42,503 nt of DNA from Nitrospinae bacterium RIFCSPLOWO2_12_39_16 (GTDB lineage: Bacteria > Nitrospinota > Nitrospinia > UBA9942), in assembly GCA_001805005.1 (NCBI GenBank), contig MHDO01000149.1, positions 1 through 42,503 of the forward strand, in the 5' to 3' direction. Positions 3,703 through 21,800 of this stretch are shown in pieces. Both the position numbers and the translations under genes were made by a program. Position 1 is the first letter of the stretch. Each line of letters starts with the position of its first letter. Below the pieces are notes generated by a model. It did not search any database. It saw only the letters and a list, made by a program, of their open reading frames with translations, and had not been told where the DNA came from.

Positions 3703-3715
3703 GGGGGGATTTACC

Positions 3716-5965: not shown

Positions 5966-5980
5966 GGGAGGTTGATTAAA

Positions 5981-8143
5981 ATGAACAAAAACCTAATATT
6001 AACCACAGAGACACAGAGGCGCAGAGGAAAAAACAACTTAAAGAAATCTCTGTGTCTCAGTGCCTCTGTGGCTTTTTCTTGCATCTTGCTTCTTGCATCT
6101 TGCTTCCTGTCACCGACACTGGCACTTGCACTGGAAGAGGAACTTCCATACTCCATCACAGATATTACATCTGGAGAGGCAGTAGATTTTTACCCTGAGT
6201 TCAGCCGTGATGGAAAACAGATTGTTTTCTCCTCTAAGCCATTGGACGGTAGTTATTTCACTGATATGCATCTGTGGATTATGGATGCCGATGGAAATAA
6301 CAGACGGCAGATAACAGATAAGAGTGCGATGTATCTTCAGCCTACCTTTACACCTGATGGAGAAAAGGTTGTTTTTATCTCCAATTTGGAAGATGGACTA
6401 TGGGATATATGGTCAATGAAAATTAACGGTTCAGGGCTTACCCGACTGACAAAGGACAACCAGAAAGAGTTTTTTCCGATTGTTACCTCTGATGGTAAAA
6501 ATGTGATTTTCATAGGAAGATATTTTGGAACGGATAGTGTATTTATTATGGATACTGATGGCAAAAATCTGAAAAGATTGACTTCCGGTGGAAATGGAGA
6601 TTCCTTTCCTGCGGTTTGTCAGGATGGAAAGGATATTATTTTTTCCACAACGAGGCTTGGTAATAGCAATCTCTGGACAATAGACAGAGAAGGGAAGATA
6701 TATAATCGTCTTACCTTTGAAGATACAATAGAGTTTTCACCATCCTGCAGCCCTGATGGAAAAAGGATTGCCTATGTTGCCATAGAGGGAGGGGCTAAGA
6801 CTTATAGCAAGGCACGGAAGGGATTTGAGTTTAAAGAGATATCCTATAGGGAAAGGTCATTTGATATGTGGTTGATGAACAAGGATGGAAGCGGCAGGAG
6901 GCAGATTGCAAGAAATATATTTGAGACGGGACCGAGTATGAGGTTGTTCAAGTCCGTAGATGTTATAGAAGGGATTAACTACTATCACATCTCATGGCAT
7001 CCTGATGGTAAAAAGATGATATTGAGCAGATGGAATAAGGACAAAGCGGGGAGTCGTATCAGTATCTTGTCATTAGATAATGAAGTTGTTGAAAAATTAC
7101 CAATCACCGAAACACCGCTTTCTGAGTATTCTCTTCTCAGTGAAAAAGACCTTACCGGTGGGGATTGGGATGACATCACCCCAAGTTTTGCCCCGGATGG
7201 CAAGGGTATAATATTTGCCTCTAACAGAAATGGCGGGTGGGATATATGGAGGCTTTGGATTGCGGATTGCGGATTGCGGATTGCGGATTGCAAATCAGAG
7301 TTTGATGATGCAAAGCTGGAACAGCTAACAAAAGGGGATGATGATGAGTTGGCTCCAGTATATAGTCCTGATGGCAAAAAGATAGCTTATTTACGAAATA
7401 CGAAAGACGAAATACTAAATACGAAATATGATATATGGTTAATGAAAACTGACGGGAGTAGTGCGAGGCAGGTTACAAATGGGATTTCTGTTCTTTCCTA
7501 CCCTGCATGGAAACCTGATGGGAAAGAGATTGTCTTTGTGTCTGAAGGTAATGAACAAGCCCCTGAAATATGGGGATATAATATCGCTGAGGGGAGTCTT
7601 AAAAATATTGCATCCATTAAGGACGCTTTACTTCTTGGCTCCAGATTAAATAAGAAAACTAATATTGAACTTATCAGTGACAGGCGAAATATAAATACTT
7701 CTAATCCGCTATCAATAGGTGCAGGTGGTATCTATCCATTTAATAAATTTCTTTATCGTATAAATTATAGTCCTCGCGGCGACAGAATTATATTTGAACT
7801 GGATATGAAAGATAGCATAGGTATATGGACTATTAATAGTGATGGTAATGGTCTTACTCCTGTTATGACAGAGGATTCTCTCTACTGGACGCCGGTCTTC
7901 AGCCCGGATGGCAGAAAAATAGCCTATTCAAAAAAGGCAGGTAAACAGTTTGCCCCGATATATTGGACGGATTACAACATCTGGATAGCGGATGTTGATA
8001 GCGGTGAGAAGATGATGATTAATGGGGAAGAGCAGATAGACTGGTTTCCATCATGGAGCCCTGATGGAAAGAAAATAGCTTATGTTACTAATCGTTCGGG
8101 AGATTTCAGCCGCTTTAATATATGGCTGTTGTATTTGAAATAA
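5981..8143 (+). CDS. exported PD40/TolB-like double beta-propeller protein (subfamily A)
   Basis: GGGAGG 5966-5971 lies 9 nt before ATG 5981; the ORF-track start 5972 is TTG. Leader MNKNLILTTETQRRRG..ASCFLSPTLALA/LEEE. PD40 blade motifs. Ends ..FNIWLLYLK*. Confidence 0.85.
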   Translation: MNKNLILTTETQRRRGKNNLKKSLCLSASVAFSCILLLASCFLSPTLALALEEELPYSITDITSGEAVDFYPEFSRDGKQIVFSSKPLDGSYFTDMHLWIMDADGNNRRQITDKSAMYLQPTFTPDGEKVVFISNLEDGLWDIWSMKINGSGLTRLTKDNQKEFFPIVTSDGKNVIFIGRYFGTDSVFIMDTDGKNLKRLTSGGNGDSFPAVCQDGKDIIFSTTRLGNSNLWTIDREGKIYNRLTFEDTIEFSPSCSPDGKRIAYVAIEGGAKTYSKARKGFEFKEISYRERSFDMWLMNKDGSGRRQIARNIFETGPSMRLFKSVDVIEGINYYHISWHPDGKKMILSRWNKDKAGSRISILSLDNEVVEKLPITETPLSEYSLLSEKDLTGGDWDDITPSFAPDGKGIIFASNRNGGWDIWRLWIADCGLRIADCKSEFDDAKLEQLTKGDDDELAPVYSPDGKKIAYLRNTKDEILNTKYDIWLMKTDGSSARQVTNGISVLSYPAWKPDGKEIVFVSEGNEQAPEIWGYNIAEGSLKNIASIKDALLLGSRLNKKTNIELISDRRNINTSNPLSIGAGGIYPFNKFLYRINYSPRGDRIIFELDMKDSIGIWTINSDGNGLTPVMTEDSLYWTPVFSPDGRKIAYSKKAGKQFAPIYWTDYNIWIADVDSGEKMMINGEEQIDWFPSWSPDGKKIAYVTNRSGDFSRFNIWLLYLK
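6003..6112. repeat. family-2 leader palindrome (octamer arms) + heptamers in PD40 gene 4
   Basis: CACAGAGA CACAGAGG CGCAGAGG 6004-6027. TCTCTGTG TCTCAGTG CCTCTGTG 6047-6070. CTTGCAT CTTGCTT CTTGCAT CTTGCTT CCTGTCA 6078-6112. Confidence 0.9.
7257..7291 (+). repeat. perfect (GGATTGC)x5 inside PD40 gene 4
   Basis: Five identical heptamers. Translates (R)LWIADCGLRIADC(K). Confidence 0.95.
7393..7427 (+). repeat. in-frame heptamer STR (ACKAAAK)x5 in PD40 gene 4
   Basis: ACGAAAT ACGAAAG ACGAAAT ACTAAAT ACGAAAT. Translates NTKDEILNTK. Same loop as 821-898. Confidence 0.9.
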
Positions 8144-8151
8144 TTAATGAT

Positions 8152-8227
8152 AGTTTCATTAGTTTTATTAGTTGGATTGGTTAAAAGCAATAAAACTAAT
8201 AAGACCAATGCAACCAATAAAACAAAT
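8152..8227. repeat. intergenic palindrome of 9-mers
   Basis: AGTTTCATT AGTTTTATT AGTTGGATT 8152-8178, facing AAAAGCAAT AAAACTAAT AAGACCAAT GCAACCAAT AAAACAAAT 8183-8227 (AATAAAACT is the reverse complement of AGTTTTATT). Confidence 0.85.
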
Positions 8228-8245
8228 TGAAGGGGAGAATTTACT

Positions 8246-10438
8246 ATGTATATTAAAAAACTGACACAGTCACTAACACTCACACTGTCATTATCACTAT
8301 TATTAATTCTTGCCGGTGAGGTCTTTGCGGACACGCAAAGTATTTCAGATATCCCTTATAATGTCATTAGAATTACTGATGGGAGTTCCAAAGATTATCA
8401 GCCTGAGTTCAGTCCTGATGGGAAGCAGATTGTATTTATTAAAGAAATAAGTAATAGTGAAGGCATAAAAAGTGGTGAATTCTGGCACAAGACACCATAT
8501 TACATGAACCTATGGCTCATGGATTCGGATGGTAAGAATAGGAGACAATTAACATCAGGAGAGGTGCAGGATTTTGCTCCAATGTTTACAACGGATGGGA
8601 AAAGTATCATTTTTGTATCAAATCGTAAACATGGTAATAGATGGGATATATGGTCAATTAATGTAGATGGCTCAAACCTTACCAGAATAACAGAAATAGA
8701 AAAGAATGAGCTATGGGAGAGAATATTTTATCCTTCACCTACACCTGATGGTAAAGGGATGCTTTTCGTAGTTTATCAAGAAGGTCACCCAAGTGTATGG
8801 TTAATGGACATGGAAAGTAGGGCTGTGAAAAGAATAACATCAGGAGGAACTGGAGACGATACTCCTGTGATGTCCCCTGATGGTAAAGATATCGTCTTTA
8901 AAACTTACAGACTCGGAGCTGGTGGTATATGGTCAATAGATAGGTCAGGAAAAAATTACAAGAGATTGACATACAAGTATTATAGGGAGTTTTACCCTGC
9001 ATGGAGTCCGAATGGAACAAAGATATCTTATGTTACTTATGAAAATGGCATTTTTGACCTATGGATAATGGATAGGGATGGCAGAAATAAAAAGAGGCTG
9101 ATAAAATCTATTCCACTGAAACCAAGTGATTTCTGGAGTGAGCATCCTATCGAATCTGGATATTATCGTGTCTCATGGCACCCTTATGGTACAAAGCTTG
9201 CCTTAACCCTTTGGGACCAAGATAAAAAAGAAAGCTATTTAACATTGTTTGATTTTGAAAAAGATATTACCATGGTATCGGAAAGCTTGTCTGATGAAAC
9301 CGAGTCGCTTAAAGATTATACGCTGATTGGTGAAAAAGATATCTCCGGCGATGGGAATTGGGATGATTTTGGTCCGTCTTTTAGTCCTGATGGAAAAACA
9401 ATACTATTTGCTTCTAATAGAAAAGGAAACTGGGGCATATGGAGTTTGGGAGCCGATGGCGAAGGATTAAAACAAATAACAAAAGGGAGCGGTGATGACA
9501 TTGCCCCTGTTTTTAGTCCTGATGGCAAAGAGATAGCTTTTTTGAAGAAGACAGAAGATAAGAAGTTAAGAAGTTTAGAAGATGAGAAACTGAAAAGCAC
9601 AACCTCTCAACCTCTCAACCTCTCAACTTCTGTTATTTCTACCTATGACCTCTGGATAATGAATAGTGATGGGAGTGTGGCGAGACAGGTTACTAAAGGT
9701 ATTTCAATTATATCCTATCCTGCATGGAATCCGAATGGGAAAGAGATTGCCTTTATTACAAAAGGTGATAAAGGTCATGAAATACAATTTATATCCCTTA
9801 ATAAAGATAGTGTGGGAGGTGTTTCTCAAGCTTACACTGTGAACCGACTTATCTCTATATGGGATATTGAAAATGATAATTCTGCAATCTCTCTATTCGA
9901 AAAAAACGAAGATTTTACTTCTAATAAAAAGTATAAAATAGCAAAGATGCAACATTTTTTACCAGAAGTGAAAAACCCTGCATTTATTTTATCAAGATTT
10001 ATAAAAGGAGAGGCGGTTACTTTATCCTATCCATTAAAAGAATTTCTTTATAAAGCCAGTTATAATACCTCCGGTGATAAGATTATATTTGAGTCCAATC
10101 GGACAGGGAACATAGATATATGGTCGGTAAAAAGGGATGGGACAGAACTGACACGAATTACGAAAGGGAATGGACCTCATTTGAATCCAGTTTTTAGCCC
10201 AGATAATAAAAAAATTGCCTTTGCCCATCGTAAAGAAATAGGGGTAAGCATTAGCAATACAACAAACTATAATATATGGATTGCCGATGTTCAAACAGAT
10301 GAGGAGATGATGATTAACGGTGAGGAGCAGACAGACTGGAATCCTGTATTTAGTCCTGATGGAAAAAAAATTGCCTATGTTACCAATCGTTCAGGAGATT
10401 TTAAGCACTATAACATATGGATGCTGTATTTGAAATAA
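8246..10438 (+). CDS. exported PD40/TolB-like double beta-propeller protein (subfamily B)
   Basis: AGGGGAG 8231-8237 upstream of ATG 8246. Classical signal peptide MYIKKLTQSLTLTLSLSLLLILAGEVFA/DT. GEFWHKTPYYMNLWLMDSDG signature. Ends ..NIWMLYLK*. Confidence 0.9.
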   Translation: MYIKKLTQSLTLTLSLSLLLILAGEVFADTQSISDIPYNVIRITDGSSKDYQPEFSPDGKQIVFIKEISNSEGIKSGEFWHKTPYYMNLWLMDSDGKNRRQLTSGEVQDFAPMFTTDGKSIIFVSNRKHGNRWDIWSINVDGSNLTRITEIEKNELWERIFYPSPTPDGKGMLFVVYQEGHPSVWLMDMESRAVKRITSGGTGDDTPVMSPDGKDIVFKTYRLGAGGIWSIDRSGKNYKRLTYKYYREFYPAWSPNGTKISYVTYENGIFDLWIMDRDGRNKKRLIKSIPLKPSDFWSEHPIESGYYRVSWHPYGTKLALTLWDQDKKESYLTLFDFEKDITMVSESLSDETESLKDYTLIGEKDISGDGNWDDFGPSFSPDGKTILFASNRKGNWGIWSLGADGEGLKQITKGSGDDIAPVFSPDGKEIAFLKKTEDKKLRSLEDEKLKSTTSQPLNLSTSVISTYDLWIMNSDGSVARQVTKGISIISYPAWNPNGKEIAFITKGDKGHEIQFISLNKDSVGGVSQAYTVNRLISIWDIENDNSAISLFEKNEDFTSNKKYKIAKMQHFLPEVKNPAFILSRFIKGEAVTLSYPLKEFLYKASYNTSGDKIIFESNRTGNIDIWSVKRDGTELTRITKGNGPHLNPVFSPDNKKIAFAHRKEIGVSISNTTNYNIWIADVQTDEEMMINGEEQTDWNPVFSPDGKKIAYVTNRSGDFKHYNIWMLYLK
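9546..9626 (+). repeat. in-frame STR pair in PD40 gene 5: AGAAG at period 7-8 x6 (9546-9592), (CCTCTCAA)x3 (9603-9626)
   Basis: Read directly. Translates ..KKTEDKKLRSLEDEKLKSTTSQPLNLST.. Same loop as 821-898. Confidence 0.85.
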
Positions 10439-10453
10439 ATGGGAGGTTTTACC

Positions 10454-12673
10454 ATGAACATAAAAATCAGAAGACAGAAGACAGAAGACAGAAAACAGAC
10501 CTCTTGCCTCCACAGGCTAAAGCCTGCGACTACTCATTGCTCATTGCTTTTTGCTTTTTGCTTTTTGCTCTTGCTTCTTGTCGGTAAGGTCTTTGCGGAC
10601 ACACAAAGTATTTCAGATATCTCTTATAATGTCATTAGAATTACAGACGGGAGTTCCATGGATTATAATCCTGAATTCAGCCCTGATGGAAAACAGATTG
10701 TGTTTATATCAAAAATAGATAATACTGAGGCTAAGAAAAAAGGAGAGTTTTGGCACAAGACACCATTTTATCTGAATCTATGGCTCATGGATTCGGATGG
10801 TAAGAACAGGAGACAATTAACATCAGGAGAGGTGCAGGATTTTGCTCCAAGGTTTACCCCTGACGGGAAAAAGGTTTTTTTTGTATCCAATCGAATGAAT
10901 AATAAAAGGGATGTATGGTCAATAGATATTGATGGCTCAAACCTTAAAAGGATTGCAGAGATAGAGGGGGATACAGAACATTGGAGGACAGTACAATATC
11001 CAGTTCCTACACCTGATGGTAAGGGATTGGTTTTAATACTCTATAAAAAAGAGTCTGTAAGTGGTGTATGGTTTATGGATATAGAAAGTGGAAAGACAAG
11101 GAGAATAACTTCAGGGGGAAATGGAGACTATTTTCCGGTAATGTCTCCTGATGGTAAAGAGATTGTTTTTGAAAGCATGAGACTGGGCAATTTGGGTAGT
11201 AGCGGAGATATTTGGTTAGTGGATACATCAGGAAAAAATTACAAGCGATTAACCTATGAGAATTATCCTGAGCTTTATCCTGCATGGAGTCCAGATGGAA
11301 CTAAGATATCATATGTTGCCAACAAAGAGGGTATCATTGATATATGGATAATGGATAGAGATGGAAAACACAGAAAGAGAGTAACAAAAAACATCTTAAA
11401 AGAGGTATGGGGGCGAAAGTGGCTGTCCATGTTTAATTATAACGACTTGTTTGATGCAGGATATTATCATGTATCATGGCATCCCGATGGAACAAAGCTT
11501 GCTTTAACTACATGGGAGCCTGATAAAAAAGAGAGCTATTTGACAATACTTGATTTTAAGGAAGATATTAGTAAAGTAATAGATAATTTACCTGAAGAAA
11601 AAAAGAACCTGTCTGATTATACTCTGATTGGGGAGAAAGACCTTACAGGTGGTGGAGACTGGGATGATTTTGGCCCATCTTTTAGCCCTGATGGAAAGAC
11701 AATAATCTTTGCTTCCAATAGAAAGGGGAACTGGAATATCTGGAGTATAGGAATTGATGGTGTAGGATTAAAACAGCTTACAAACGGGGATGATGATGAG
11801 TTAGCTCCAGTATATAGTCCTGATGGAAAAGAAATAGCCTTCCTTAAAAGCTCAAAGGAATTACTTTCAGCTTATGATATATGGGTAATGAAAAGTGATG
11901 GAAGTGGTGCGAGGCAGGTTACAGAGGGTTTTAAAGTTATATCCTACCCTGCTTGGAACCCGCAAAGTAACGAGATTGCCTTTGTATCAAAAGAGGATAA
12001 AGGTCCTGAGATACAATTAATCTCTCTTAGTAAGGTTGGTCAAGAGGTTGTTAATACTGTTAGTCGGGTTATTTCTATGTGGGATACTCAAAAGCCCAAT
12101 CCAGTTATGTTCCCATTTGCAAAAGAAGAGGAACAGAGAGAGTTCAATCCTCATAAAATAATGAAGATGAAAAAAATGGTTCAAGAGGAAAATAAAAATG
12201 AGAGAAAAGTTTGGAGCGAGGAATTGTTACTCTTAAAAAAAATCTTTGAGATTCCTTATCCATTGGAAGAGTTTCTTTATAAGATTGATTATAATACCAC
12301 AGGGGATAGACTTATATTTGAATCTAATCAAACAGGAAATATAAATATATGGTCGGTAAAAAGGGACGGAACAGGGCTGACCCATCTTACGAAAGGAGAT
12401 GGCACCTATCTAAATCCAGTTTTTAGCCCTAATAATTCAAAAGTTGCATATACCCGTAAGCTTAATAGAAGGTCAGAGTTTGATTACAACACCAGTGAAA
12501 GTTATGACATCTGGATTGCCGATGTTGATACTGGCGAGGAGATGAGGATTAACGATGAGGAGCAGACAGACTGGAATCCTGTCTTTAGTCCTGATGGAAA
12601 AAAAATTGCCTATGTTACTAATCGTTCAGGAGATTTTGAGCATTATAATATATGGCTGCTGTATTTAAAATGA
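10454..12673 (+). CDS. exported PD40/TolB-like double beta-propeller protein (subfamily B)
   Basis: GGGAGG 10441-10446 lies 7 nt before ATG 10454; ORF-track ATG 10439 directly abuts the upstream stop. Leader MNIKIRRQKTEDRKQ..LLLLLVGKVFA/DT. PD40 motifs. Ends ..NIWLLYLK*. Confidence 0.85.
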   Translation: MNIKIRRQKTEDRKQTSCLHRLKPATTHCSLLFAFCFLLLLLVGKVFADTQSISDISYNVIRITDGSSMDYNPEFSPDGKQIVFISKIDNTEAKKKGEFWHKTPFYLNLWLMDSDGKNRRQLTSGEVQDFAPRFTPDGKKVFFVSNRMNNKRDVWSIDIDGSNLKRIAEIEGDTEHWRTVQYPVPTPDGKGLVLILYKKESVSGVWFMDIESGKTRRITSGGNGDYFPVMSPDGKEIVFESMRLGNLGSSGDIWLVDTSGKNYKRLTYENYPELYPAWSPDGTKISYVANKEGIIDIWIMDRDGKHRKRVTKNILKEVWGRKWLSMFNYNDLFDAGYYHVSWHPDGTKLALTTWEPDKKESYLTILDFKEDISKVIDNLPEEKKNLSDYTLIGEKDLTGGGDWDDFGPSFSPDGKTIIFASNRKGNWNIWSIGIDGVGLKQLTNGDDDELAPVYSPDGKEIAFLKSSKELLSAYDIWVMKSDGSGARQVTEGFKVISYPAWNPQSNEIAFVSKEDKGPEIQLISLSKVGQEVVNTVSRVISMWDTQKPNPVMFPFAKEEEQREFNPHKIMKMKKMVQEENKNERKVWSEELLLLKKIFEIPYPLEEFLYKIDYNTTGDRLIFESNQTGNINIWSVKRDGTGLTHLTKGDGTYLNPVFSPNNSKVAYTRKLNRRSEFDYNTSESYDIWIADVDTGEEMRINDEEQTDWNPVFSPDGKKIAYVTNRSGDFEHYNIWLLYLK
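10468..10580. repeat. family-1 leader cassette, copy in PD40 gene 6
   Basis: (CAGAAGA)x3 CAGAAAA 10468-10495. Hairpin CAGGC-TAAA-GCCTG 10513-10526. (CTCATTG)x2 (CTTTTTG)x3 then CTCTTG CTTCTTG 10533-10580. Confidence 0.9.
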
Positions 12674-12738: not shown

Positions 12739-12758
12739 TTTTTATGGAGGGATTTACC

Positions 12759-13715
12759 ATGAACATAAAAATCAGAAGACAGAAGACAGAAGACAGAAAA
12801 CAGACCTCTTGCCTCCACAGTCTAAAGCCTGCGGCTACTCATTGCTCATTGCTCATTGCTCATTGCTTCTTGTCACTCACACTTACACTGACACTATTAT
12901 TAGTTTTTGCTTCACTAGGGTGGACAGGAGGAGGAGGCTCTTATAATAAGAGGAGTGAGATGGTTCTTATACCCGAAGGTAAGTTTTTAATGGGGAGTAA
13001 AGAAGGTGATGGCAGAGTTGGCATTGATATGGGTGTAGATGAGCTTCCCCAGAGGGAGGTCTATCTTAAGTCATTTTACATAGATAAATATGAGGTTACT
13101 GTGGGGGCGTATAGAAAATTTGCAAAGGGACCAGGTGAAGAAGAGAGAAAATTTGCGAAGGGGACGGTGAATTCACCTTCAATTCTTCTTATCGGAGGGT
13201 TGACAGGTGAAAGGGCGAGAATGAAGAAGATGAGGGTTCCAATAGCAGATGATGATTTTCCTATGGCTGATGTGAGCTATATGGAGGCAGAGGCTTATTG
13301 TAAATCAATAGGGAAAAGACTTCCTACTGAAGAGGAGTGGGAGAAGGCAGCCAGGGGTAGTGATGGAAGAATCTGGCCATGGGGTAATAAGTTTGAGACA
13401 GGTATGGCAAACACCATAGAATCTAAAGAAAATGGGGCTGTGCAAGGGGGGAGTTTTACGGCCGATATAAGCCCTTATGATGTTTATGATATGGCAGGTA
13501 ATCTGATGGAGTGGACATCTTCATGGTATGAATCATATCCTGGGAGCAAGCTTGAAAGGCCTCAATTTGGTAAGGGGTATAGGGTCATGAAGGGCGGCAC
13601 CTGGAGTGCACCGTCAATACCTTTTTCCCGTGTAGCTCACAGGTACCCTGTCAAACCTACTGAAAATAATCATAGCCACCGTTATGGATTCAGATGTGCA
13701 AAAGATGCAGGGTAA
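12759..13715 (+). CDS. exported FGE-sulfatase-fold (SUMF1/PorK-like) domain protein, no FGE catalytic Cys pair
   Basis: GGAGGG 12746-12751 lies 7 nt before ATG 12759. Family hallmarks FYIDKYEVT, RLPTEEEWEKAARG, YDMAGNLMEWT, KGGTW, GFRCAKD. The segment equivalent to FGE GGSYMCHRSYCYRYR reads GGTWSAPSIPFSRVAHR, with no Cys. Confidence 0.85.
   Translation: MNIKIRRQKTEDRKQTSCLHSLKPAATHCSLLIAHCFLSLTLTLTLLLVFASLGWTGGGGSYNKRSEMVLIPEGKFLMGSKEGDGRVGIDMGVDELPQREVYLKSFYIDKYEVTVGAYRKFAKGPGEEERKFAKGTVNSPSILLIGGLTGERARMKKMRVPIADDDFPMADVSYMEAEAYCKSIGKRLPTEEEWEKAARGSDGRIWPWGNKFETGMANTIESKENGAVQGGSFTADISPYDVYDMAGNLMEWTSSWYESYPGSKLERPQFGKGYRVMKGGTWSAPSIPFSRVAHRYPVKPTENNHSHRYGFRCAKDAG
12773..12899. repeat. family-1 leader cassette, copy in FGE-fold gene 12759
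   Basis: (CAGAAGA)x3 CAGAAAA 12773-12800. Hairpin CCACAGTC-TAAA-GCCTGCGG 12815-12834. (CTCATTG)x4 12838-12865. CACTYA hexamers to 12899. Confidence 0.9.
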
Positions 13716-13719
13716 TAAT

Positions 13720-14763
13720 ATGTTGTCATTTGGTTATTCAAGTAAAGGAAATTATAAAAATTTGCCACAGAGGCACGGAGACACAGAGGAAATAAGGAGA
13801 AATGGTGAAAGGAAAAGAAATGGAGGAGCAAAAAAGTTATTTTTTATTGCTTTTTCTCCATCTCTCCATCTTCTCCCTTTCTCCTTAGTCTTTTTTGTCT
13901 TTCTCTGTGCCTCTGTGTCTCTGTGGCTTATTATGTCATTTCCCTTAGTGGTTACCGGTGATGAAGGAAAGGATGCAGAAGCACCTATAGAATTGGTCTT
14001 TGTTAAAGGGGGTTGTTTTAAAATGGGAGATATTGCTGGAGACGGAGAGAATGATGAAAGGCCTGTTCATGAGGTCTGTGTGGATGATTTTTATATCGGC
14101 AAGTATGAGGTTACAAGGGGTGAGTTTGAAAAATTTTTTAGTGAGACAGGTTATACTACTGATGCACAAAAAATGGGCTGTTTCGGGAAAGTGGGTTACA
14201 AATGGAGAAAGAGGATGGATTTTAGCTGGGAAAAGGTAGATTTTCCTCAGACAGATAGGCACCCGGCAGTCTGTATAAGCTATAATGATACACAAGAATT
14301 TATAAAATGGTTGAATAAAAAGCTTGTGGTGAGCGAAGCGAATCCATCTGATGGTAAATATCGTTTGCCCACAGAGGCTGAATGGGAATATGCAGCGAGG
14401 AGCGGCGGTAAGGCAGAAAAATGGGCAGGAACAAGTATAGAGTCGGAGCTTTCAGATTATGCATGGTATGATAAAAACTCTGGAGGTAAAACACATCCTG
14501 TAGGTCAGAAGAAACCTAATGTATTGGGTTTATACGATATGAGCGGCAATGTGTGGGAGTGGGTGGAGGATTGGTATGAGGTTGATTATTATGATAGAAG
14601 CCCTAAAAATAATCCTTTAAATACGAGCCCCAGCCATGCAAAGTCAATGCGCAGTGGTCCATGGAGTGTTCCTGTCCATGCTGTAAGGGTATTCTATCGC
14701 GGTAGTGATATACCGTATAGTATATGTGATGGACTTGGGTTTAGGATTGCAAAGACACCGTAG
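13720..14763 (+). CDS. FGE-sulfatase-fold domain protein, no FGE catalytic Cys pair
   Basis: FYIGKYEVT, YRLPTEAEWEYAARSGG, YDMSGNVWEWVEDWY, GFRIA. The start is uncertain: ATG 13720 follows the upstream stop, while ATG 13684 overlaps it. The first ~70 codons run through a nested palindrome (13764-13927). Confidence 0.8.
   Translation: MLSFGYSSKGNYKNLPQRHGDTEEIRRNGERKRNGGAKKLFFIAFSPSLHLLPFSLVFFVFLCASVSLWLIMSFPLVVTGDEGKDAEAPIELVFVKGGCFKMGDIAGDGENDERPVHEVCVDDFYIGKYEVTRGEFEKFFSETGYTTDAQKMGCFGKVGYKWRKRMDFSWEKVDFPQTDRHPAVCISYNDTQEFIKWLNKKLVVSEANPSDGKYRLPTEAEWEYAARSGGKAEKWAGTSIESELSDYAWYDKNSGGKTHPVGQKKPNVLGLYDMSGNVWEWVEDWYEVDYYDRSPKNNPLNTSPSHAKSMRSGPWSVPVHAVRVFYRGSDIPYSICDGLGFRIAKTP
13764..13927. 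repeat. nested (double) STR palindrome in the 5' region of FGE-fold gene 13720
   Basis: Outer arms GCCACAGAGGCACGGAGACACAGAGG 13764-13789 and CTCTGTGCCTCTGTGTCTCTGTGGC 13903-13927. Inner arms GGAGAAATGGTGAAAGGAAAAGAAATGGAGGAG 13796-13828 and CTCCATCTCTCCATCTTCTCCCTTTCTCC 13856-13884. Confidence 0.85.
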
Positions 14764-14768
14764 TTTAG

Positions 14769-15677
14769 ATGAACATGAAAATGAGAAGTCAGAAGTCAGA
14801 AGTCAGAAGTCAGGAGCAAGAAGCTCAAAGGGTTTGCTTTCAGTCTTCAGCTTTCAGCTTTCAGTTTCCATTTGTCTTTTGCCTCTATGTTTTTGCCTCT
14901 ATGCTCTTGCTTGTAGGCAGTGCAAATGCTAATGAATGTAAACTTATGGAGCCGAAAGTTCTGAAAAAATATATAGAAAATGGAACAATATACAATATGG
15001 TCGTAATTGATGTTCGTCAGGAGCATGATATAAAAATGAAGCGTATCGTGAGGGCTATTCCTGCCACTTTTGATAATATTAAAAAAGAATTGGTTAGCAG
15101 GGTGGGTGAGCTTATTGGTAAGAATGTAATTCTAATTGGGGAAGATACGAAGTCTGCAGAAAGTGTATGCAGCTATATGATAAAAAAAGATTACGGAATT
15201 CGTAATATCTTTGTCTTAAAAGGCGGGATGGAAAAGTGGGATGGACCTATTTTAGATGATATTTCAAATGTAGGATGTGAAGTGATTACCTCCCAGCAAC
15301 TTAAAAAGATAATGAAGTCAAATAGAAAGGTTGAGATAATTGATAAGCGTCCGTCAGAAGAGTATTATGAAGGACATATACCAGAGGCAAAATTAGAAGG
15401 TGGTTGGGGGAATCAGTTTCCAATAAATAAGTTCTCAATAAAAAACTTCTTACAGGAACTGGAGAGGCGTAAAAAATGGGAAAAAGAAAATGTTACTGTT
15501 GTATATGTCTATGATAACGAATGGCATGCCATGAGGGAGTGTAGGTATGAAAAATATTGGACATGGGGGTATAAAAATATTTATGTTCTTAGAGGCGGTA
15601 TGAAGGTATGGGAAGGAGAAGTAAAAAAAGATTATCTTGAAATATTGAAAAAGAGAGTTAAGGAGAAACTTAAATAG
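14769..15677 (+). CDS. exported tandem rhodanese-like domain protein, catalytic Cys absent in both domains
   Basis: Two rhodanese-homology units (..VVIDVRQEHD..VLKGGMEKWDG; ..VEIIDKRPSEEYYEGHIPEA..VLRGGMKVWEG). The active-site-loop position reads LIGEDTKSA and VYDNEWHA instead of CxxGxR[ST]. Leader MNMKMRSQKSEVRSQ..VFASMLLLVGSANA/NE. Confidence 0.75.
   Translation: MNMKMRSQKSEVRSQEQEAQRVCFQSSAFSFQFPFVFCLYVFASMLLLVGSANANECKLMEPKVLKKYIENGTIYNMVVIDVRQEHDIKMKRIVRAIPATFDNIKKELVSRVGELIGKNVILIGEDTKSAESVCSYMIKKDYGIRNIFVLKGGMEKWDGPILDDISNVGCEVITSQQLKKIMKSNRKVEIIDKRPSEEYYEGHIPEAKLEGGWGNQFPINKFSIKNFLQELERRKKWEKENVTVVYVYDNEWHAMRECRYEKYWTWGYKNIYVLRGGMKVWEGEVKKDYLEILKKRVKEKLK
14784..14903. repeat. STR leader of rhodanese gene 14769
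   Basis: (AGAAGTC)x4 AGGAGCA AGAAGCT 14784-14825. TCAG at period 7 x4 14838-14868. TTTTGCCTCTATG x2 14877-14903. Confidence 0.9.
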
Positions 15678-15707
15678 AGTCAAAGAGTCAAAGTGTCAGA
15701 GAGTTAA
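15676..15707. repeat. octamer STR AGAGTCAA AGAGTCAA AGTGTCAG AGAGTTAA (left flank of DUF4160/DUF2442 pair)
   Basis: Read directly. Overlaps stop TAG 15675-15677. Confidence 0.9.
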
Positions 15708-15736
15708 ATAAGAATATTGATGGATAAGAAAGATTT

Positions 15737-15986
15737 ATGCCCAGAATATCTATGTTTTTTGGTATATGTGTATTATGACGATCACAATCCTCCACATTTT
15801 CATGCCTCATATGAAGGTTTAGAAGCTACATTTGACTTTGGAGGAAATTTAATAAATGGCATTATGTCAACAAGGGCTAATAAATTGGTTAAGGAATGGA
15901 GCGGTATTCATAAAGGAGAACTGGAAGAAAACTGGGAAAGGGCAAGAAAAGATAAATCATTAAATTGGATAGAGCCTTTGAGATAG
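15737..15986 (+). pseudogene. DUF4160-family gene with a +1 frameshift near the 5' end
   Basis: ATG 15737 opens the canonical family N-terminus MPRISMFFGI, then hits TGA 15776-15778. The rest (..VYYDDHNPPHFHASYEGLEATFDF..ELEENWERARKDKSLNWIEPL*) is in the +1 frame, which the ORF track starts at 15717. Total length is 3n+1. Deleting one nt, e.g. T15767, restores MPRISMFFGIVYYDDHNPPHFHA. Confidence 0.7.
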
Positions 15987-16323: not shown

Positions 16324-17121
16324 ATGAAAAAAATATTATTTAAACTTTCAATTTTTTTCTTTGTGTCCTTCCTGTTCTTCGTGGTTAATCAGGTTTTTGT
16401 CCCTTCATTATCAGAGGCATCGGAATGTATCCTTATTGAACCGGAAGAGATGAAAAGGAGGTATGAAGACAGGGCAATTCTTTTAAACGATATGTTTATA
16501 TTTGATATTCGTTCCTATACGATAGCCAATAAGGGGAAAAGGATTCCGATGTCTATGGGGATCACCTATGAATCTATTGAAAATGAGTTTGTCTATGAGA
16601 TAGAGGTGTGGAAAGGGAAAGATGTTTATTTAGTAGGTGAAGATACAGAATCAACAGAGAACTTCTGCAAAGCCATGCTGGAAAAAAATTATCCAATTGA
16701 TGATATTTATGTTCTAAAGGGGGGTATGAATGCATGGAATGGACATGTTATCACTGGGAAGTTTGAGGATGTGAACTGTGAGGAGATAAATTTGGAAGAG
16801 TTATTGGGACTGAAAGATTCAGAAAGGAAAGTTGAATTTGTTGATATTCGTTCTCTAATAGATTATGAGAAGGGACATATTCCGGGTGCAGTAGGGGAAG
16901 GTGCGTTCAGGCGTGAAAATCTGTGTCTAACAGGTGTATTCTCAAGGGCGGTAAAGGAAGATGGTGCTGTGGTCTTTGTGGGATATACAGAGGCAGAAAC
17001 AGTGCATAGATGCAGGGCGCTGAAATGGGCAGTTGGATATAACAATATGTATGCACTTAAAGGAAGCATGAAGGCATGGAAAGGGAAGCTTGAAAAGGGA
17101 AAATTTGAGGGGCGGTATTAA
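16324..17121 (+). CDS. exported tandem rhodanese-like domain protein, catalytic Cys absent in both domains
   Basis: GGAGGTGG precedes ATG 16324. Signal peptide MKKILFKLSIFFFVSFLFFVVNQVFVPSLSEA/SE. Paralogue of 14769-15677. Loop positions read LVGEDTEST and FVGYTEAET. Also HIPGA and LKGGMNAWNG. Confidence 0.8.
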   Translation: MKKILFKLSIFFFVSFLFFVVNQVFVPSLSEASECILIEPEEMKRRYEDRAILLNDMFIFDIRSYTIANKGKRIPMSMGITYESIENEFVYEIEVWKGKDVYLVGEDTESTENFCKAMLEKNYPIDDIYVLKGGMNAWNGHVITGKFEDVNCEEINLEELLGLKDSERKVEFVDIRSLIDYEKGHIPGAVGEGAFRRENLCLTGVFSRAVKEDGAVVFVGYTEAETVHRCRALKWAVGYNNMYALKGSMKAWKGKLEKGKFEGRY

Positions 17122-17140
17122 AAATATCTTGAGAGTGTTA

Positions 17141-18058
17141 GTGAAAAGTGTCAGTGTCAGCAAAAAAATACTGATACTAACGCTAACGCTAACACTGACA
17201 CTATCAACTATAGTTAATGGAGAGAAAACAGAGATGCCAATAGAGATGGTTTTTGTAAGAGGCGGCTGTTTTCAGATGGGAGATATTTTTGGGGATGCAG
17301 AGAACAATGAAGAACCAGTGCATAAGGCATGGAAAGGCGGGCATCATCAGCATCATCAAGGGGCTAACGAAAAACCTGTGCATGAGATATGTGTGGACGA
17401 TTTTTATATAGGGAAATATGAGGTAACAGTAGGCGAGTTTAAGGAGTTTGTAAATGCTACAGGATATAAAACAGACGCTGAAGTTGGAGATGGTTGTTAT
17501 GGCTGGTCAGGGAGTAAATGGGAAAAGGACAGAAGCAGGAATTGGCGTAATCCTGGTTTTCTACAAGATGACAATCATCCGGTATCCTGTGTAACATGGG
17601 ATGATGCAGTAGTCTATATAGAGTGGCTGTCAGATAAGACAGGTAAAATGTATCGTTTGCCCACAGAGGCTGAATGGGAATATGCAGCGAGGAGCGGAGG
17701 TAAGGCAGAAAAATGGGCAGGGACAAATATTGAGTCGGAGCTTTCGGATTATGGATGGTACAATAAAAACTCTAAAGGTAAAACACATCCAGCAGGCAAT
17801 AAAAAATCAAATGGATTGGGATTATATGACATGACAGGGAATGTGTGGGAGTGGGTACAGGACTGGTATGACGAGAATTATTACAACAGCAGCCCTAAGA
17901 ATAATCCACAGGGACCAACTTCTGGCTCCTACCATATCCATCGCGGCGGCAGTTGGTATTTCAGTTCCCATCATGCAAGGATTACAAGTCGTCACCCTTA
18001 TACCCCCGACTACAGGTGCTATAGCCTCGGTTTTCGCTTTGCAGCCTCCACAAAATAA
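17141..18058 (+). CDS. FGE-sulfatase-fold domain protein with His-rich insertion, no FGE catalytic Cys pair
   Basis: Close paralogue of 13720-14763 (FYIGKYEVT, YRLPTEAEWEYAARSGG, YDMTGNVWEWVQDWY, GFRFA). The start is uncertain: GTG 17141 or TTG 17129 lie after the upstream stop 17119-17121, while ORF-track 17090 overlaps the upstream gene. Leader ..KKILILTLTLTLTLSTIVNG. Confidence 0.8.
   Translation: MKSVSVSKKILILTLTLTLTLSTIVNGEKTEMPIEMVFVRGGCFQMGDIFGDAENNEEPVHKAWKGGHHQHHQGANEKPVHEICVDDFYIGKYEVTVGEFKEFVNATGYKTDAEVGDGCYGWSGSKWEKDRSRNWRNPGFLQDDNHPVSCVTWDDAVVYIEWLSDKTGKMYRLPTEAEWEYAARSGGKAEKWAGTNIESELSDYGWYNKNSKGKTHPAGNKKSNGLGLYDMTGNVWEWVQDWYDENYYNSSPKNNPQGPTSGSYHIHRGGSWYFSSHHARITSRHPYTPDYRCYSLGFRFAASTK
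17147..17206. repeat. hexamer STR palindrome in leader of FGE-fold gene 17141
   Basis: AGTGTCAGTGTCAG 17147-17160 against CTAACACTGACACT 17189-17202 (13/14 complementary). (CTRAYR)x6 17171-17206 encodes LILTLTLTLTLS. Confidence 0.85.
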
Positions 18059-18075: not shown

Positions 18076-21015
18076 ATGCAAGTTTTTCGGAAGTTTTATA
18101 AAATACTGCTACTGTTATTCGTTCCCACACTCTGCGTGGGAATGTTTATTATCTTAAACCCTGTCTACGCCTCTGAAATGCCTGCCCATGAACGATTTAA
18201 TCAGGGAGTTGATGCTGAATTAACCCATGAAACAAGTTCAGGGCAAGGTTCAGCACAAGTATTTGTTCAGATGGGGCATTCAGAATCGGTTCTTTCTGTA
18301 GCTTTCTCCAATAATGGAAAATATATATTATCAGGAGGCAAGGATAAAATCCTCATACTCTGGGATGCACCCACAGGGAGGGAGATACGAAAATTTGAAG
18401 GGCATACGAGTGATGTTAATTCAGTTGCCTTTAGTTATGACGGGAGGATTCTGGCATCAGGTGGTAGGGATAAAACCATAATTCTGTGGGATATTAATAC
18501 AGGAAATATCATAAAAACATTTATAGGTCATACATCCACTGTCAAATCAGTTGCCATTAGCCCTGATGGAAGGATTCTGGCATCAGGGAGTTGGGATAAA
18601 ACTATAATCCTGTGGGATATTGAAACGGGGAGTGCTATAAAAACACTTAAGGGACATAATGACTATATTGATTCAGTTGCCTTTAGTCCTGATGGAAGGA
18701 CTCTTGCATCGGGGAGTCAGGATAAAACCATAAAACTATGGGAAATATCTACAGGAAGGGAGATGCGGAAATTTGAAGGGCATACCGGTCATGTCAAATC
18801 AGTTTCCTTTAGTCCTGATGGAAAAATTATCGCATCAGGTATTGATAAAGATATAACCCTGTGGAATATAGAAACAGGGAGTGCTATAAGGACACTTAAA
18901 GGACATGATGATATGGTATTGTCAGTTGCCTTTAGTCCTGTTGGAAAGGTTCTCTCATCAGGTGGGATTGATAAAAACATAATTCTCTGGGATATTGATA
19001 CAGGCAATGTCATAAAAACATTCAAAGGACAAACTGACTATATCAGTTCAGTTGCTTTAAGTCCTGATGGAAGAACTCTATGCTCAGGGAGTTTTGATAA
19101 CACCGTACTCCTCTGGGATATAGAAACAGGGAGTGATATAAGGACACTTAAAGGGCATAATTTTTATGCCAAATCAGTTGCCTTCAGTCCAGATGGAAGG
19201 ATTCTGGCGTCAGAGAGTTATGACACCGTACTCCTCTGGGATATAGAAACAGGGAGTGCTATAAAGACACTTAAAGGACATAATGAGTGGGTATCTGCAG
19301 TTGCCTTCAGCCCTGATGGAAAAGTTTTTGCATCGGGTGGCTGGGATAAAACTATAATTCTCTGGGATGTTGCAGCAGGTAGTGCTATAAGAACATTCAG
19401 AGGGCATACTTCATGGGTCAAATCAGTTGCCTTTAGTCCTGATGGAAAGATGCTGGTATCTGTGGGACAGGATGACGCTATAATCCTCTGGGATGTGGCA
19501 GCAGGCAGTGCTATAAAAACGCTGAAAGGACATTGGGTCAAATCAGTTGCCTTTAGTCCTGATGGAAAGAGTATAGCATCAGGTGGTGATTACAATATAA
19601 CCCTTTTGGATGTTGCAACAGGAAATGTAATAAAGACTTTCACCGGCCATACCGATTGGGTTGTACCAGTCACCTTCAGCCATGATGGAAGGCTTTTAGC
19701 ATCAGGGAGTGTTGATAAAGCTGTAATACTCTGGGATGTTGAGAAAGGTAATGCCATAAAAACACTAAGAGGACACAGTAATAATGTCGTCTCAGTTGCC
19801 TTCAGCCATGATGGAAGGCTTTTAGCATCAGGGAGTGTTGATAAAACTGTAATACTCTGGGATGTTGAGAAAGGTAATGCCATAAAAACACTAAGAGGAC
19901 ATAATGATATACTTTTATCAGTTGCCTTTAGTCCTGCTAAAAGGATTCTCGTATCAGGGAGTGGCGATGGAACGAGCAGATGCTGGGATATAAATACAGG
20001 GAGGGAGATTGCCCAGTTTATAGGTTTTAGTAATGGAGAGTGGATTGTGATTACCCCTGAAGGCTATTACAATTCCTCTGCAAATGGTGATAAACTTTTG
20101 AATGTAAGGGTCGGCAATAATGTTTATGGAATGGATCGGTATCGCTCATCATTTTATAACCCCAGGATTGTGGAGAATGCATTAAAACTTGAGGATTCAC
20201 AGAAAGCCATCTTAGAGGTTATTGGAGGGCAAAAGGGGATATTGCCTACCATTTCTACAATCCCTGTAACAGAGAGGGGAAGAAAGGAATGTATACCTAT
20301 TGATGCAGAGGAAATGCAGAGACGATACGAGAATAAGCCACTTCTCTTTGATAATATGTTTATATTTGATATTCGTCCTCTTAAAATGGCTGTGAAAGGA
20401 AAATCCATCCCATTTGTAAAGCAAACCAATTGGGATATGTTCAGGGTAAAATATATTTATAATGTAGAAATGTGGAAGGGTAAAGATGTTTATCTGATTG
20501 GTGAAGACTCAGAATCAACGAAGAGTTTTTGCGAAGAGATGCTCAAAAAAGATTATAGTGTGAATGATATTTATTATTTAAAAGGTGGAATAGATGCCTG
20601 GAATGGACCTGTCAGGATGCCTTTTAAAGATGTCCAGTGTGAAGGTCTTGATGGGGATGAAATAAAAAAAATGATGGAGGGAGGACAGAAGGTTTATATA
20701 ATAGACTGGCGTCATCCAAACGATTTTTATAATGGCGGGCATATCCCTGACTCAATAAATGGATATGGGAAAGAAGGTATTTTTGGAGGGATTGAAGACA
20801 TGCTTAGGGGATACTTTAGATTCAGACCAATTTATATAGATGTAATCAGAGATAATGCCATAGCAGTGTTTATAGATGATACAGAGTGGAAAGGATTGCA
20901 TCGCTGTAAGATTGAGAAGAGGGCAAGTGGTGTAATGGATAAGATGTATTATTTAAAAGGTGGTATTGAAAACTGGAAAGGGTCTCTGGAGAAAGAATCA
21001 TGGCAGCAAAAATAA
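18076..21015 (+). CDS. exported 14-repeat WD40 protein fused to a beta-rich linker and C-terminal tandem Cys-less rhodanese-like domains
   Basis: 14 units of [KR]GHxxxVxSVAFSPDG[RK]xLASGSxDKT[IV]xLWD (two 7-blade propellers). Then GEWIVITPEGYYNSSANGDKLLNVRVG..FYNPRIV. From ~20281, RKECIPIDAEEMQRRY.. is paralogous to 14769-15677 and 16324-17121. N-terminus MQVFRKFYKILLLLFVPTLCVGMFIILNPVYA/SE. Confidence 0.85.
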   Translation: MQVFRKFYKILLLLFVPTLCVGMFIILNPVYASEMPAHERFNQGVDAELTHETSSGQGSAQVFVQMGHSESVLSVAFSNNGKYILSGGKDKILILWDAPTGREIRKFEGHTSDVNSVAFSYDGRILASGGRDKTIILWDINTGNIIKTFIGHTSTVKSVAISPDGRILASGSWDKTIILWDIETGSAIKTLKGHNDYIDSVAFSPDGRTLASGSQDKTIKLWEISTGREMRKFEGHTGHVKSVSFSPDGKIIASGIDKDITLWNIETGSAIRTLKGHDDMVLSVAFSPVGKVLSSGGIDKNIILWDIDTGNVIKTFKGQTDYISSVALSPDGRTLCSGSFDNTVLLWDIETGSDIRTLKGHNFYAKSVAFSPDGRILASESYDTVLLWDIETGSAIKTLKGHNEWVSAVAFSPDGKVFASGGWDKTIILWDVAAGSAIRTFRGHTSWVKSVAFSPDGKMLVSVGQDDAIILWDVAAGSAIKTLKGHWVKSVAFSPDGKSIASGGDYNITLLDVATGNVIKTFTGHTDWVVPVTFSHDGRLLASGSVDKAVILWDVEKGNAIKTLRGHSNNVVSVAFSHDGRLLASGSVDKTVILWDVEKGNAIKTLRGHNDILLSVAFSPAKRILVSGSGDGTSRCWDINTGREIAQFIGFSNGEWIVITPEGYYNSSANGDKLLNVRVGNNVYGMDRYRSSFYNPRIVENALKLEDSQKAILEVIGGQKGILPTISTIPVTERGRKECIPIDAEEMQRRYENKPLLFDNMFIFDIRPLKMAVKGKSIPFVKQTNWDMFRVKYIYNVEMWKGKDVYLIGEDSESTKSFCEEMLKKDYSVNDIYYLKGGIDAWNGPVRMPFKDVQCEGLDGDEIKKMMEGGQKVYIIDWRHPNDFYNGGHIPDSINGYGKEGIFGGIEDMLRGYFRFRPIYIDVIRDNAIAVFIDDTEWKGLHRCKIEKRASGVMDKMYYLKGGIENWKGSLEKESWQQK
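18122..18142. repeat. 7-bp-stem hairpin TTCCCAC-ACTCTGC-GTGGGAA inside signal-peptide coding region
   Basis: Perfect inverted repeat. Encodes (F)VPTLCVGM. Confidence 0.6.
19675..19926 (+). repeat. 126-bp tandem duplication = two near-identical WD40 blades (repeats 12 and 13)
   Basis: 19675-19775 against 19801-19901: 101 nt with a single mismatch (ATAAAGCTG/ATAAAACTG). Both encode FSHDGRLLASGSVDK[AT]VILWDVEKGNAIKTLRGH. Confidence 0.95.
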
Positions 21016-21800
21016 CAGAAGTCAGAAGCCAGAAGCCAGAAGCAAGAAGTCAGAATATCTTTACTCTGTTTTCTGTTCTCTGTCTTTTGTCCTCTGTCCT
21101 CTGGTGTCTGATATTGGCACCCATGTTAGTCAGTGCTGACAGTGAAATGAAAGGGGGGTATCGCAATGATTATCTGCCGAGAGGGATTGTTCCTAAACAT
21201 GAAATGGATAAAGCTGAAAACTGGATTGCTATATTTGAACATTCAAAGCGTGATGAATGGCAAGAGCCAGATAAGGTAATTGAAAAAATGAACTTAAAAG
21301 ATGGTGATGTAATTGCTGATATTGGGGCAGGGTCAGGCTATTTTACAAGGCGGTTTGCCATGGCTGTTGGGCTTACAGGGAAGGCTTATGGAGTGGATAT
21401 TGAGCCTGAGTTGGTTAAATACATGGGTGATGATGCGCAAAAATTAAATCTTAAAAATTATATACCACGATTAGCAACAATGGCTGACTCAGGCCTTGAT
21501 CCCGGTAGTGTTGATGTGGTCTTTATATGTCTTACCTATCATCATATTGAGGATAGAATTAATTATATGAATAAACTTAAAAAGATTTTGAAAAAAGGCG
21601 GAAGGGTTGTAATTGTCGCATTTTATAAAAAGAAGATGGACTTCGGTCCCCCTCCTGATAATAAGATTTCGGAGGAAGTAACGATAGAAGAGATGAAAGA
21701 GGCTGGTTATCATCTTACCAAGCGGCTTGATTTTTTGAGATATCAGTATTTTCTTGAATTTGAGCCAGTTGAAAATCAGCCACAGACTTACACAGATTAA
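21000..21800 (+). CDS. class I SAM-dependent methyltransferase with N-terminal signal/anchor-like leader
   Basis: Motif I VIADIGAGSGYFTRRFA, VDVVFICLTYHHI, LKKGGRVVIV. The leader ..EVRSQKPEARSQNIFTLFSVLCLLSSVLWCLILAPMLVSA/DS is built from STRs. ATG 21000 overlaps the upstream gene by 16 nt. Confidence 0.8.
   Translation: MAAKITEVRSQKPEARSQNIFTLFSVLCLLSSVLWCLILAPMLVSADSEMKGGYRNDYLPRGIVPKHEMDKAENWIAIFEHSKRDEWQEPDKVIEKMNLKDGDVIADIGAGSGYFTRRFAMAVGLTGKAYGVDIEPELVKYMGDDAQKLNLKNYIPRLATMADSGLDPGSVDVVFICLTYHHIEDRINYMNKLKKILKKGGRVVIVAFYKKKMDFGPPPDNKISEEVTIEEMKEAGYHLTKRLDFLRYQYFLEFEPVENQPQTYTD
21016..21110. repeat. STR leader of methyltransferase gene
   Basis: CAGAAGT (CAGAAGC)x3 AAGAAGT CAGAATA 21016-21057. 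CTCTGTT TTCTGTT CTCTGTC TTTTGTC CTCTGTC CTCTGGT 21064-21105. Confidence 0.9.

Follow-up and report, generated by a model that had tools for sequence, protein, structure and literature searches.

Rhodanese domains that have lost their catalytic Cys are regarded as mediators of protein interaction (PMC10135228), and two further papers give examples of such inactive interaction domains (PMC7274447, PMC12057046). Here, we analysed a contig of Nitrospinae bacterium RIFCSPLOWO2_12_39_16 (MHDO01000149.1; 42,503 nucleotides, positions 1 to 42,503 of the forward strand, called the window below) in which four genes, named RhodA, RhodB, WD40-RhodC and RhodD, encode seven rhodanese domains. A first-pass annotation had claimed that all seven lack the Cys of the active-site loop and share two other Cys. 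The window domains have the same alpha/beta fold as the known inactive domains, namely the N-terminal domains of bovine TST and A. vinelandii RhdA, the MKP/Cdc25-homology domains, and the Rhod domains of USP8 and TBC1D23. Those domains, too, have lost the loop Cys, and in many of them Asp has taken its place. However, the known inactive domains reside in the cytoplasm and share no pair of conserved Cys, whereas the window proteins are exported, both domains of each tandem are dead, and a Cys pair in the domain core is invariant.

Several proteins of known structure share single features with the window domains. In the following, Cys1 and Cys2 denote the two conserved Cys, and columns are those of a profile built from the seven domains. 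Alr3790 of Anabaena (3K9R, 3ILM, 2KL3, 3HIX) has Gly at the catalytic column (IYVYGAGDEQ), as several window domains do, and it is among the best single-domain PDB sequence matches (27-28 bits; Foldseek TM-score 0.66). However, it has no Cys at either pair column and, according to its PDB sequences, it is not secreted. First in the PDB, by sequence profile (2.2e-08) as well as by fold (Foldseek E 1.2e-08), comes 6MXV of Francisella tularensis, which is also a tandem of short domains but keeps the catalytic Cys in both of them (YFYCGGGFRS, YLYCGSGFRS) and has no Cys pair. PspE and YnjE of E. coli and Sud of Wolinella (1QXN, 3IPO/2WLR) have the same fold and are active sulfurtransferases with the loop Cys. 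All three are periplasmic, that is, rhodanese domains are exported in Gram-negative bacteria, and we know of no structural disulfide at the pair positions in any of them. Cdc25A (1C25/8ROZ) and Arabidopsis Cdc25 (1T3K) share with the window domains a helix Cys aligned to Cys2 (RMCRY, PTCA), which they carry alone; these phosphatases keep the CX5R loop, and their column 7 is hydrophobic, not Cys. It is thus the pair, and not either Cys alone, that is distinctive. The regulatory disulfide of Cdc25 joins the catalytic Cys to a different, "backdoor" Cys.

The four genes and their Cys pairs are located as follows (window coordinates; aa, amino acids; nt, nucleotides).

14769-15677, + strand: RhodA, 302 aa; signal peptide, two rhodanese domains without the catalytic Cys (aa 53-163 and 165-288), conserved C-terminal basic helix
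14937-14939 and 15168-15170, + strand: Cys pair C57/C134 of RhodA domain 1; dead catalytic position G124 (15138-15140)
15276-15278 and 15540-15542, + strand: Cys pair C170/C258 of RhodA domain 2; dead catalytic position Y248 (15510-15512)
16324-17121, + strand: RhodB, 265 aa; signal peptide, two rhodanese domains without the catalytic Cys
16426-16428 and 16666-16668, + strand: Cys pair C35/C115 of RhodB domain 1; dead position G105
16777-16779 and 17011-17013, + strand: Cys pair C152/C230 of RhodB domain 2; dead position G220
16924-16926, + strand: extra Cys C201 of RhodB, the fifth Cys of the mature protein
18076-21015, + strand: WD40-RhodC, 979 aa; signal peptide, ~14 WD40 repeats, then two rhodanese domains without the catalytic Cys
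nt ~20278-21015, + strand: rhodanese part of WD40-RhodC (aa ~735-979)
20290-20292 and 20530-20532, + strand: Cys pair C739/C819 of the first WD40-RhodC domain; dead position G809
20638-20640 and 20905-20907, + strand: Cys pair C855/C944 of the second WD40-RhodC domain; dead position D934
27045-27551, + strand: RhodD, 168 aa; signal peptide, one rhodanese domain without the catalytic Cys
27183-27185 and 27426-27428, + strand: Cys pair C47/C128 of RhodD, which has no other Cys in its mature form; dead position D118

D118 lies inside a conserved VDNxGREA loop. Because RhodD orthologues are 151-162 aa long, the true start of RhodD is likely the ATG at 27096.

The Pfam Rhodanese family (PF00581, gathering score 22.2 bits) matched all four proteins above its gathering score: RhodA (2.9e-22, 79.4 bits) and RhodB (5.5e-18, 65.7 bits) in two stretches each, RhodD in one (1.7e-15, 57.8 bits), and the C-terminal 280 aa of WD40-RhodC in two (9e-15, 55.4 bits). 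An AlphaFold2 (AF2) model of RhodA, with a predicted local distance difference test score (pLDDT) of 78, has the expected rhodanese order of strands and helices. All Foldseek matches of this model were rhodaneses, with target-normalised single-domain TM-scores of 0.64-0.83 (GlpE, 3MZZ, 3GK5, 3ILM and the integrative model 9A5G_B fall in this range). A likeness of mature RhodA residues 46-103 to polyubiquitin was also seen and was rejected as chance: it is the only match of a single-sequence PDB search with mature RhodA, with E ~1e-3 and a VLKGGM / LRLRGG resemblance, in which ...LIGEDTKSAESVCSYMIKKDYGIRNIFVLKGGM in RhodA stands opposite a 33-residue polyubiquitin stretch.

The register of the active-site loop was fixed by a PDB search with the seven-domain profile. 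Column 73 coincides with the catalytic Cys of 6MXV (YFYCGGGFRS), and the catalytic position of Arabidopsis Cdc25 falls at the same column in 1T3K, where it is printed HSALSQVR and was taken as a Cys-to-Ser variant. In the window domains this column holds G124 and Y248 (RhodA), G105 and G220 (RhodB), G809 and D934 (RhodC) and D118 (RhodD). The series G/Y/G/G/G/D/D agrees with the first-pass annotation, which had named Gly, Asp or Tyr at this position and had called the domains non-catalytic; both statements hold in register against solved rhodaneses, and all 21 peptide strings that it quoted were found in the genes to which it had assigned them. In the RhodA model, strand beta4 ends at residue 123 in domain 1 and 247 in domain 2, so that the loops open with G124 and Y248. 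Neither conserved Cys lies in the active-site loop. No Cys was found in columns 72-82 of 95 database domains of the subfamily described below, nor in the printed loops of 32 domains from related loci.

Thus, none of the seven domains has the Cys that opens the CX4[RT] loop after beta4 in active sulfurtransferases, and none has the HCX5R of Cdc25/Acr2; their loops read GEDTKSA, YDNEWHA, GEDTEST, GYTEAET, GEDSEST, DDTEWKG and DNNGREA. What all seven do have is the make-up of an inactive rhodanese, i.e., the fold without the loop Cys. Selenocysteine in the loop was considered and rejected, as the open reading frames (ORFs) run through without a break, with GGN, TAT and GAT as codons in the loop. 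The dead loops are acidic or neutral (GEDTxS, YDNEWH, GYTEAE, DDTEWK, DNNGRE), unlike a basic anion cradle. Their sequences are conserved inside each paralogue type and differ strongly between types. This conservation points to a retained non-catalytic site and not to decay.

We aligned the seven domains with MAFFT and found 7 invariant columns among 131, two of which are Cys. As the domains are only 19-39% identical to the first one in this alignment, chance is excluded as the origin of the shared pair. Both Cys are therefore conserved in every domain, as had been claimed; a count of exactly two per domain, however, is inexact for RhodB with its extra C201. Cys1 had been placed just before the first helix. 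It does precede that helix, by five residues, but its exact place is the start of strand beta1. It occupies column 7, three residues N-terminal to the conserved Ile of beta1, and in the RhodA model it is the first residue of beta1 (57-60) or lies immediately before it (C170, with beta1 at 171-173). Cys2 (column 83) had been assigned to the helix after the dead loop, and it is found there, at +10 from the dead position, in seven of seven domains; it is the eighth residue of that helix, alphaD (127-140 and 251-263 in the RhodA model). RhodA keeps all four Cys despite an identity of 52-58% between loci in which the other genes are 75-94% identical, and proteins of the RhodD type have exactly two Cys in the entire chain. 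We rejected the idea that Cys1 is a lipoprotein Cys: there is no lipobox at Cys1, and only the TPR-FGE protein described below has one.

An extracytoplasmic location had also been proposed, and it was borne out: all four window proteins begin with a hydrophobic signal sequence, as do all full-length homologues of which we read the N-terminus. AXA-like sites are present in the four window proteins and in the inspected homologues; the signals were read from the sequence without a dedicated predictor. RhodA orthologues share a cleavage-like junction, ..VNA|KEC.

To find the Cys-pair subfamily in other genomes, as the first-pass annotation had suggested, we searched 1.84 billion cluster representatives with the profile, which retrieved 3825 proteins at E ≤ 1e-3, and each domain of all retrieved proteins was realigned to the profile. 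About a dozen representatives score at least 70 bits per domain, and no canonical rhodanese exceeds 64 bits. Next below this gap are the canonical protein P0172 with the loop Cys (64 bits), P0173 with the Cys pair (63 bits) and P0075 with Cys1 only (61 bits). Both Cys are carried by 95 database domains and by 32 domains translated from related loci, and nearly all of these sequences derive from a small number of Nitrospinota-type MAGs (metagenome-assembled genomes). The high-scoring group contains no full-length protein with a single Cys; such cases are truncated fragments or lower scorers outside the group. A word-indexed search with the seven-domain profile gave only 22 proteins.

The named sources of these proteins are groundwater MAGs called "Nitrospinae/Nitrospinota bacterium". 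When 185,579 species genomes were scanned, RhodA relatives turned up in four of them, three Nitrospinota MAGs and one labelled Nitrospirae RBG_16_43_11, besides one further weak and unrelated match; since the scan used two peptide patterns only, it gives a lower bound. In NCBIfam, all models stay well below their cut-offs for the subfamily, and Pfam offers the generic family only. Our search of the literature on periplasmic or disulfide-containing rhodaneses and on rhodanese with formylglycine or WD40 found no description of it. The source database of one orthologue gives it the name "3-mercaptopyruvate sulfurtransferase SseA". Judged from sequence, the domains form a small, lineage-restricted, exported subfamily of the rhodanese homology domain in uncultured groundwater Nitrospinota.

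We consider it likely, from the alignment and the model, that Cys1 and Cys2 form a disulfide within each domain. In rhodaneses outside the subfamily, column 7 is Val or Ile and column 83 is Ala, Thr or Gly, with Val/Ile and Ala/Gly as the dominant combination. A large-small contact of this kind in the core could be replaced by Cys-Cys, which fits a buried disulfide staple. In the model, Cys2 is seven residues (~10.5 Å) below the start of its helix and Cys1 is three residues (~10 Å) below the end of beta1. With these matching heights and the sheet order of the rhodanese fold, 1-5-4-2-3, the two Cys should lie at a similar height on the same face. As expected of a disulfide-containing domain, every inspected member has an export signal, and the two Cys have been gained and kept together. 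We also calculated mutual information (MI) with average product correction for 349 rhodanese domains outside the subfamily. Columns 7 and 83 rank 3082 of 5778, with column 7 gapped in 280 of the domains, and the top pairs of this analysis are gap artefacts.

The rhodanese genes belong to a larger cluster of genes for exported proteins, among them proteins with the fold of the formylglycine-generating enzyme (FGE) and a protein related to staphylococcal nuclease (SNase).

67-12673: six PD40 (TolB-like) propeller genes, tandem paralogues of ~2.2 kb each
12744-13715 and 13684-14763, + strand: two FGE-sulfatase-fold genes immediately upstream of RhodA (Pfam; synteny in five loci)
17090-18058, + strand: FGE-like gene that overlaps the end of RhodB and precedes WD40-RhodC
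23469-24311 and 24394-25311, + strand: FGE-like genes
25275-27041, + strand: TPR-FGE, with lipobox LLAGC61; ends 3 nt before RhodD
27553-28068, + strand: gene of the secreted SNase-like protein, directly 3' of RhodD (Pfam SNase 4.4e-05)
30313-41480, + strand: complete type II secretion operon, next after the cluster in the downstream direction (GspF, G, H-like, pseudopilins, K, L/M-like, D secretin, E ATPase)
27553-28068 of the window, 3552-4064 of locus L006 and 5205-5702 of locus L004: SNase-like genes, ~170 aa, secreted

Further members of the cluster are another WD40 protein, a methyltransferase-like protein with a signal anchor and a 508-aa repeat protein. Nearly all cluster proteins tested have an N-terminal signal or anchor, the exceptions being the first PD40 ORF and a DUF4160 gene. 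Five other loci have exactly the order PD40(n)-FGE-FGE-RhodA-RhodB-FGE-WD40RhodC, and in two of them (L001 and L007) the agreement runs on through MTase-508aa-FGE-FGE-TPRFGE. The DUF4160 gene (15717-15986, Pfam 1e-16) stands between RhodA and RhodB in the window; L001 lacks it at this place and has only 124 nt between the two genes. The gene probably came in as a small insertion of the mobile or toxin-antitoxin type. The PD40 paralogues have 60-85% nucleotide identity over long stretches.

The six FGE-sulfatase-fold proteins have signal peptides or anchors. The only one that we aligned, FGE-like 17090-18058, has no Cys pair of the Cu-binding CxxxxC type found in true FGE, and its best PDB match is TvpA (2Y3C, 2.8e-34), a variable lectin-fold protein of a Treponema diversity-generating retroelement (DGR). 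A DGR acting on the FGE-like neighbours is unsupported, since no template/variable repeat pair turned up in the window and Pfam scans of the tested ORFs found no reverse transcriptase. We likewise rejected the rhodaneses as FGE substrates: their Cys motifs (ECxLxEP, [VI]xCE) are not CxPxR, and the aligned FGE-like protein lacks the Cu-binding Cys. Compared with L001 and L007-L010, window regions 14050-15679 and 17090-18058 stand out, as RhodA is 52-58% and this FGE-like protein 54-64% identical in amino acids, and the neighbours are 72-98% identical. Nucleotide identity to L007 is 89-98% and falls to ~77% over RhodA. This excess divergence of the two genes may reflect co-diversification or allelic replacement.

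A homologue of the SNase-like protein (45-52% identity) directly follows RhodD-type genes in three contexts, including those of P0042 and P0052. In an alignment to staphylococcal nuclease, the SNase-like protein keeps the equivalents of Asp21, Arg35 and Arg87 and has Asn and Gly in place of Asp40 and Glu43; it has one conserved mature Cys (C57, AVCHD). P0052, a distant member of the subfamily (L004 263-5203, GCA_054034195.1), consists of a signal peptide, a Cys-pair rhodanese domain, a transmembrane segment and GGDEF. From this fusion, it appears that the rhodanese domain serves as an input module on the extracytoplasmic side. By eye, P0052 has a degenerate GGDEF motif (EKGKI for GGDEF). P0052 adjoins a divergent AioA-like gene (Rieske_3 + Molybdopterin + Molydop_binding) and the gene of a small Rieske subunit.

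Paired heptanucleotide tandem repeats (4-6 copies, 85-100% matches) are typically located at the 5' ends of genes for exported proteins, and among the PD40 paralogues they are also found inside coding regions.

3730-3824, 10468-10572, 12773-12867, 14784-14868, 21016-21103 and 33022-33091: heptamer arrays
817-898, 2956-3034, 7257-7291 and 7392-7428: further heptamer arrays

The purine-rich array (CAGAAGA, AGAAGTC) encodes the charged n-region of the signal peptide (..RSQKSEVRSQ..), and the pyrimidine-rich array (CTCATTG, GCTTTCA) encodes its hydrophobic core. Phase variation by these arrays is possible because a change of one unit would shift the reading frame; Haemophilus and neuO provide known cases of phase variation by heptanucleotides. 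The repeat-built leaders have been exchanged between orthologues (window 14760-14940 versus L007 2780-2960, L001 9985-10170 and L008 4670-4860). In L007 and L001 the RhodA leader consists of CACAGAG-type 8-mers followed by a near reverse complement, and in L008 it is of the CAGAAGA...CTCATTG type, which is carried in the window by FGE_a. The class I S-adenosylmethionine (SAM) methyltransferase-like protein (21000-21800) has a signal-anchor built of heptamer repeats, which would put its domain outside the cytoplasm. An exported SAM-methyltransferase fold is odd; the best NCBIfam match of this protein, arsenite methyltransferase (ArsM), is far under the cut-off.

These results lead us to a reading that we hold to be somewhat favoured: the window domains would be non-catalytic, probably disulfide-stapled, extracytoplasmic binding or sensor modules. 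An exported rhodanese subfamily would have lost sulfurtransferase/phosphatase chemistry as its loop Cys changed to Gly, Tyr or Asp. The Cys that replace Val/Ile in beta1 and Ala/Gly in the helix would bond after export and staple the N-terminal edge strand to the core. The domains may then act as binding or scaffold modules of a conserved envelope cluster, used free (RhodA, RhodB, RhodD), joined to a WD40 propeller (RhodC) or, in the distant member P0052, as a periplasmic input to a transmembrane GGDEF protein. The RhodD type is paired genetically with the SNase-like protein, and RhodA, RhodB and RhodC are interleaved with the FGE-like lectin-fold proteins. We infer the binding role and the cluster partners from the WD40 and transmembrane-GGDEF fusions and from the pairing with the FGE-like and SNase-like genes.

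Several observations weigh against this proposal. A helix-to-strand disulfide needs a C-alpha separation of no more than ~6.5 Å, and our estimate, made from topology only, is borderline. The exported window proteins show no even-number bias in their Cys counts and hence no independent sign of a Dsb system, and RhodB has its odd fifth Cys. The two-domain arrangement of the RhodA model (predicted TM-score, pTM, 0.67) is not superposable on classical tandem rhodaneses (root-mean-square deviation 16-19 Å), and the RhodD model, built with eight orthologues, is too poor for use (pLDDT 52). The conserved loops could also mark a site for a small molecule instead of an interface with a protein.

The invariance of the pair could have other causes. 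If the two Cys were a functional dithiol/disulfide, they would work in a periplasmic sensor, either as a redox switch or by binding a thiophilic ligand, for example As(III) or a different soft metal(loid). The rhodanese/Cdc25 fold does include arsenate reductases, P0052 has a sensor-like architecture beside genes of arsenite-oxidase architecture, and the single conserved exported Cys of the SNase-like partner could join a thiol exchange. The ArsM match of the window methyltransferase points the same way, but it is far below threshold and such similarity is generic for class I methyltransferases. Moreover, one genomic context alone suggests arsenic, no arsenic or redox genes lie in the window, and the GGDEF motif of P0052 looks degenerate. 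Both Cys replace buried core residues and not surface or loop ones, and we regard this explanation as unlikely. In its strongest form, a reactive pair would define a new class of periplasmic redox/arsenite sensor input, free or fused to WD40 or transmembrane-GGDEF parts and working with the single-Cys SNase-like partner; this, too, seems to us unlikely. Another idea is that the nucleophile has been relocated, so that Cys2, at +10, or Cys1 carries a persulfide in a remodelled active site. Cys2 is invariant and close in sequence to the pseudo-active loop, its column has weak MI with loop columns 73-78 in other rhodaneses, and the loops are conserved per paralogue type. However, the loops differ strongly between types, are acidic (GEDTES, DNNGRE, DDTEW) and have no CX4-5R anion cradle. 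Cys2 is the eighth residue of a helix of 13-14 residues, two turns from the loop, and its column is Ala in most active rhodaneses and Cys in Cdc25A beside the true catalytic Cys. A relocated nucleophile is therefore very improbable.

The Cys could also be bonded between domains or molecules, giving homodimers or covalent links to partners such as the SNase-like protein, or through C201 of RhodB. Odd counts of mature Cys are common among the cluster proteins, and there is a precedent in the type IX system, where PorK, an FGE-fold protein, is disulfide-bonded to its partner PorG (bioRxiv 10.1101/2025.03.18.644022). Yet the rule of two Cys per domain is strict across single-domain, tandem and fused architectures, and the core positions favour a pair within the domain. 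We find bonding between domains or molecules quite unlikely.

Intracellular rhodanese domains without the catalytic Cys are well known. The exported Cys-pair subfamily, which has no curated model, is new, and it is a tidy result rather than a surprising one. For annotation, it means that these genes should not be called sulfurtransferases. If the disulfide and the binding role are true, the domain would be a small, stable extracytoplasmic module that has been multiplied seven-fold within a conserved cluster of one lineage. In several members of this cluster, catalytic residues of the respective families are missing: the Cu site from the aligned FGE-fold protein, Glu43 from the SNase-like protein, and the loop Cys from the rhodaneses. 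Knowledge of the ligands of the rhodanese modules would help to explain the purpose of a large envelope cluster located beside a type II secretion system.

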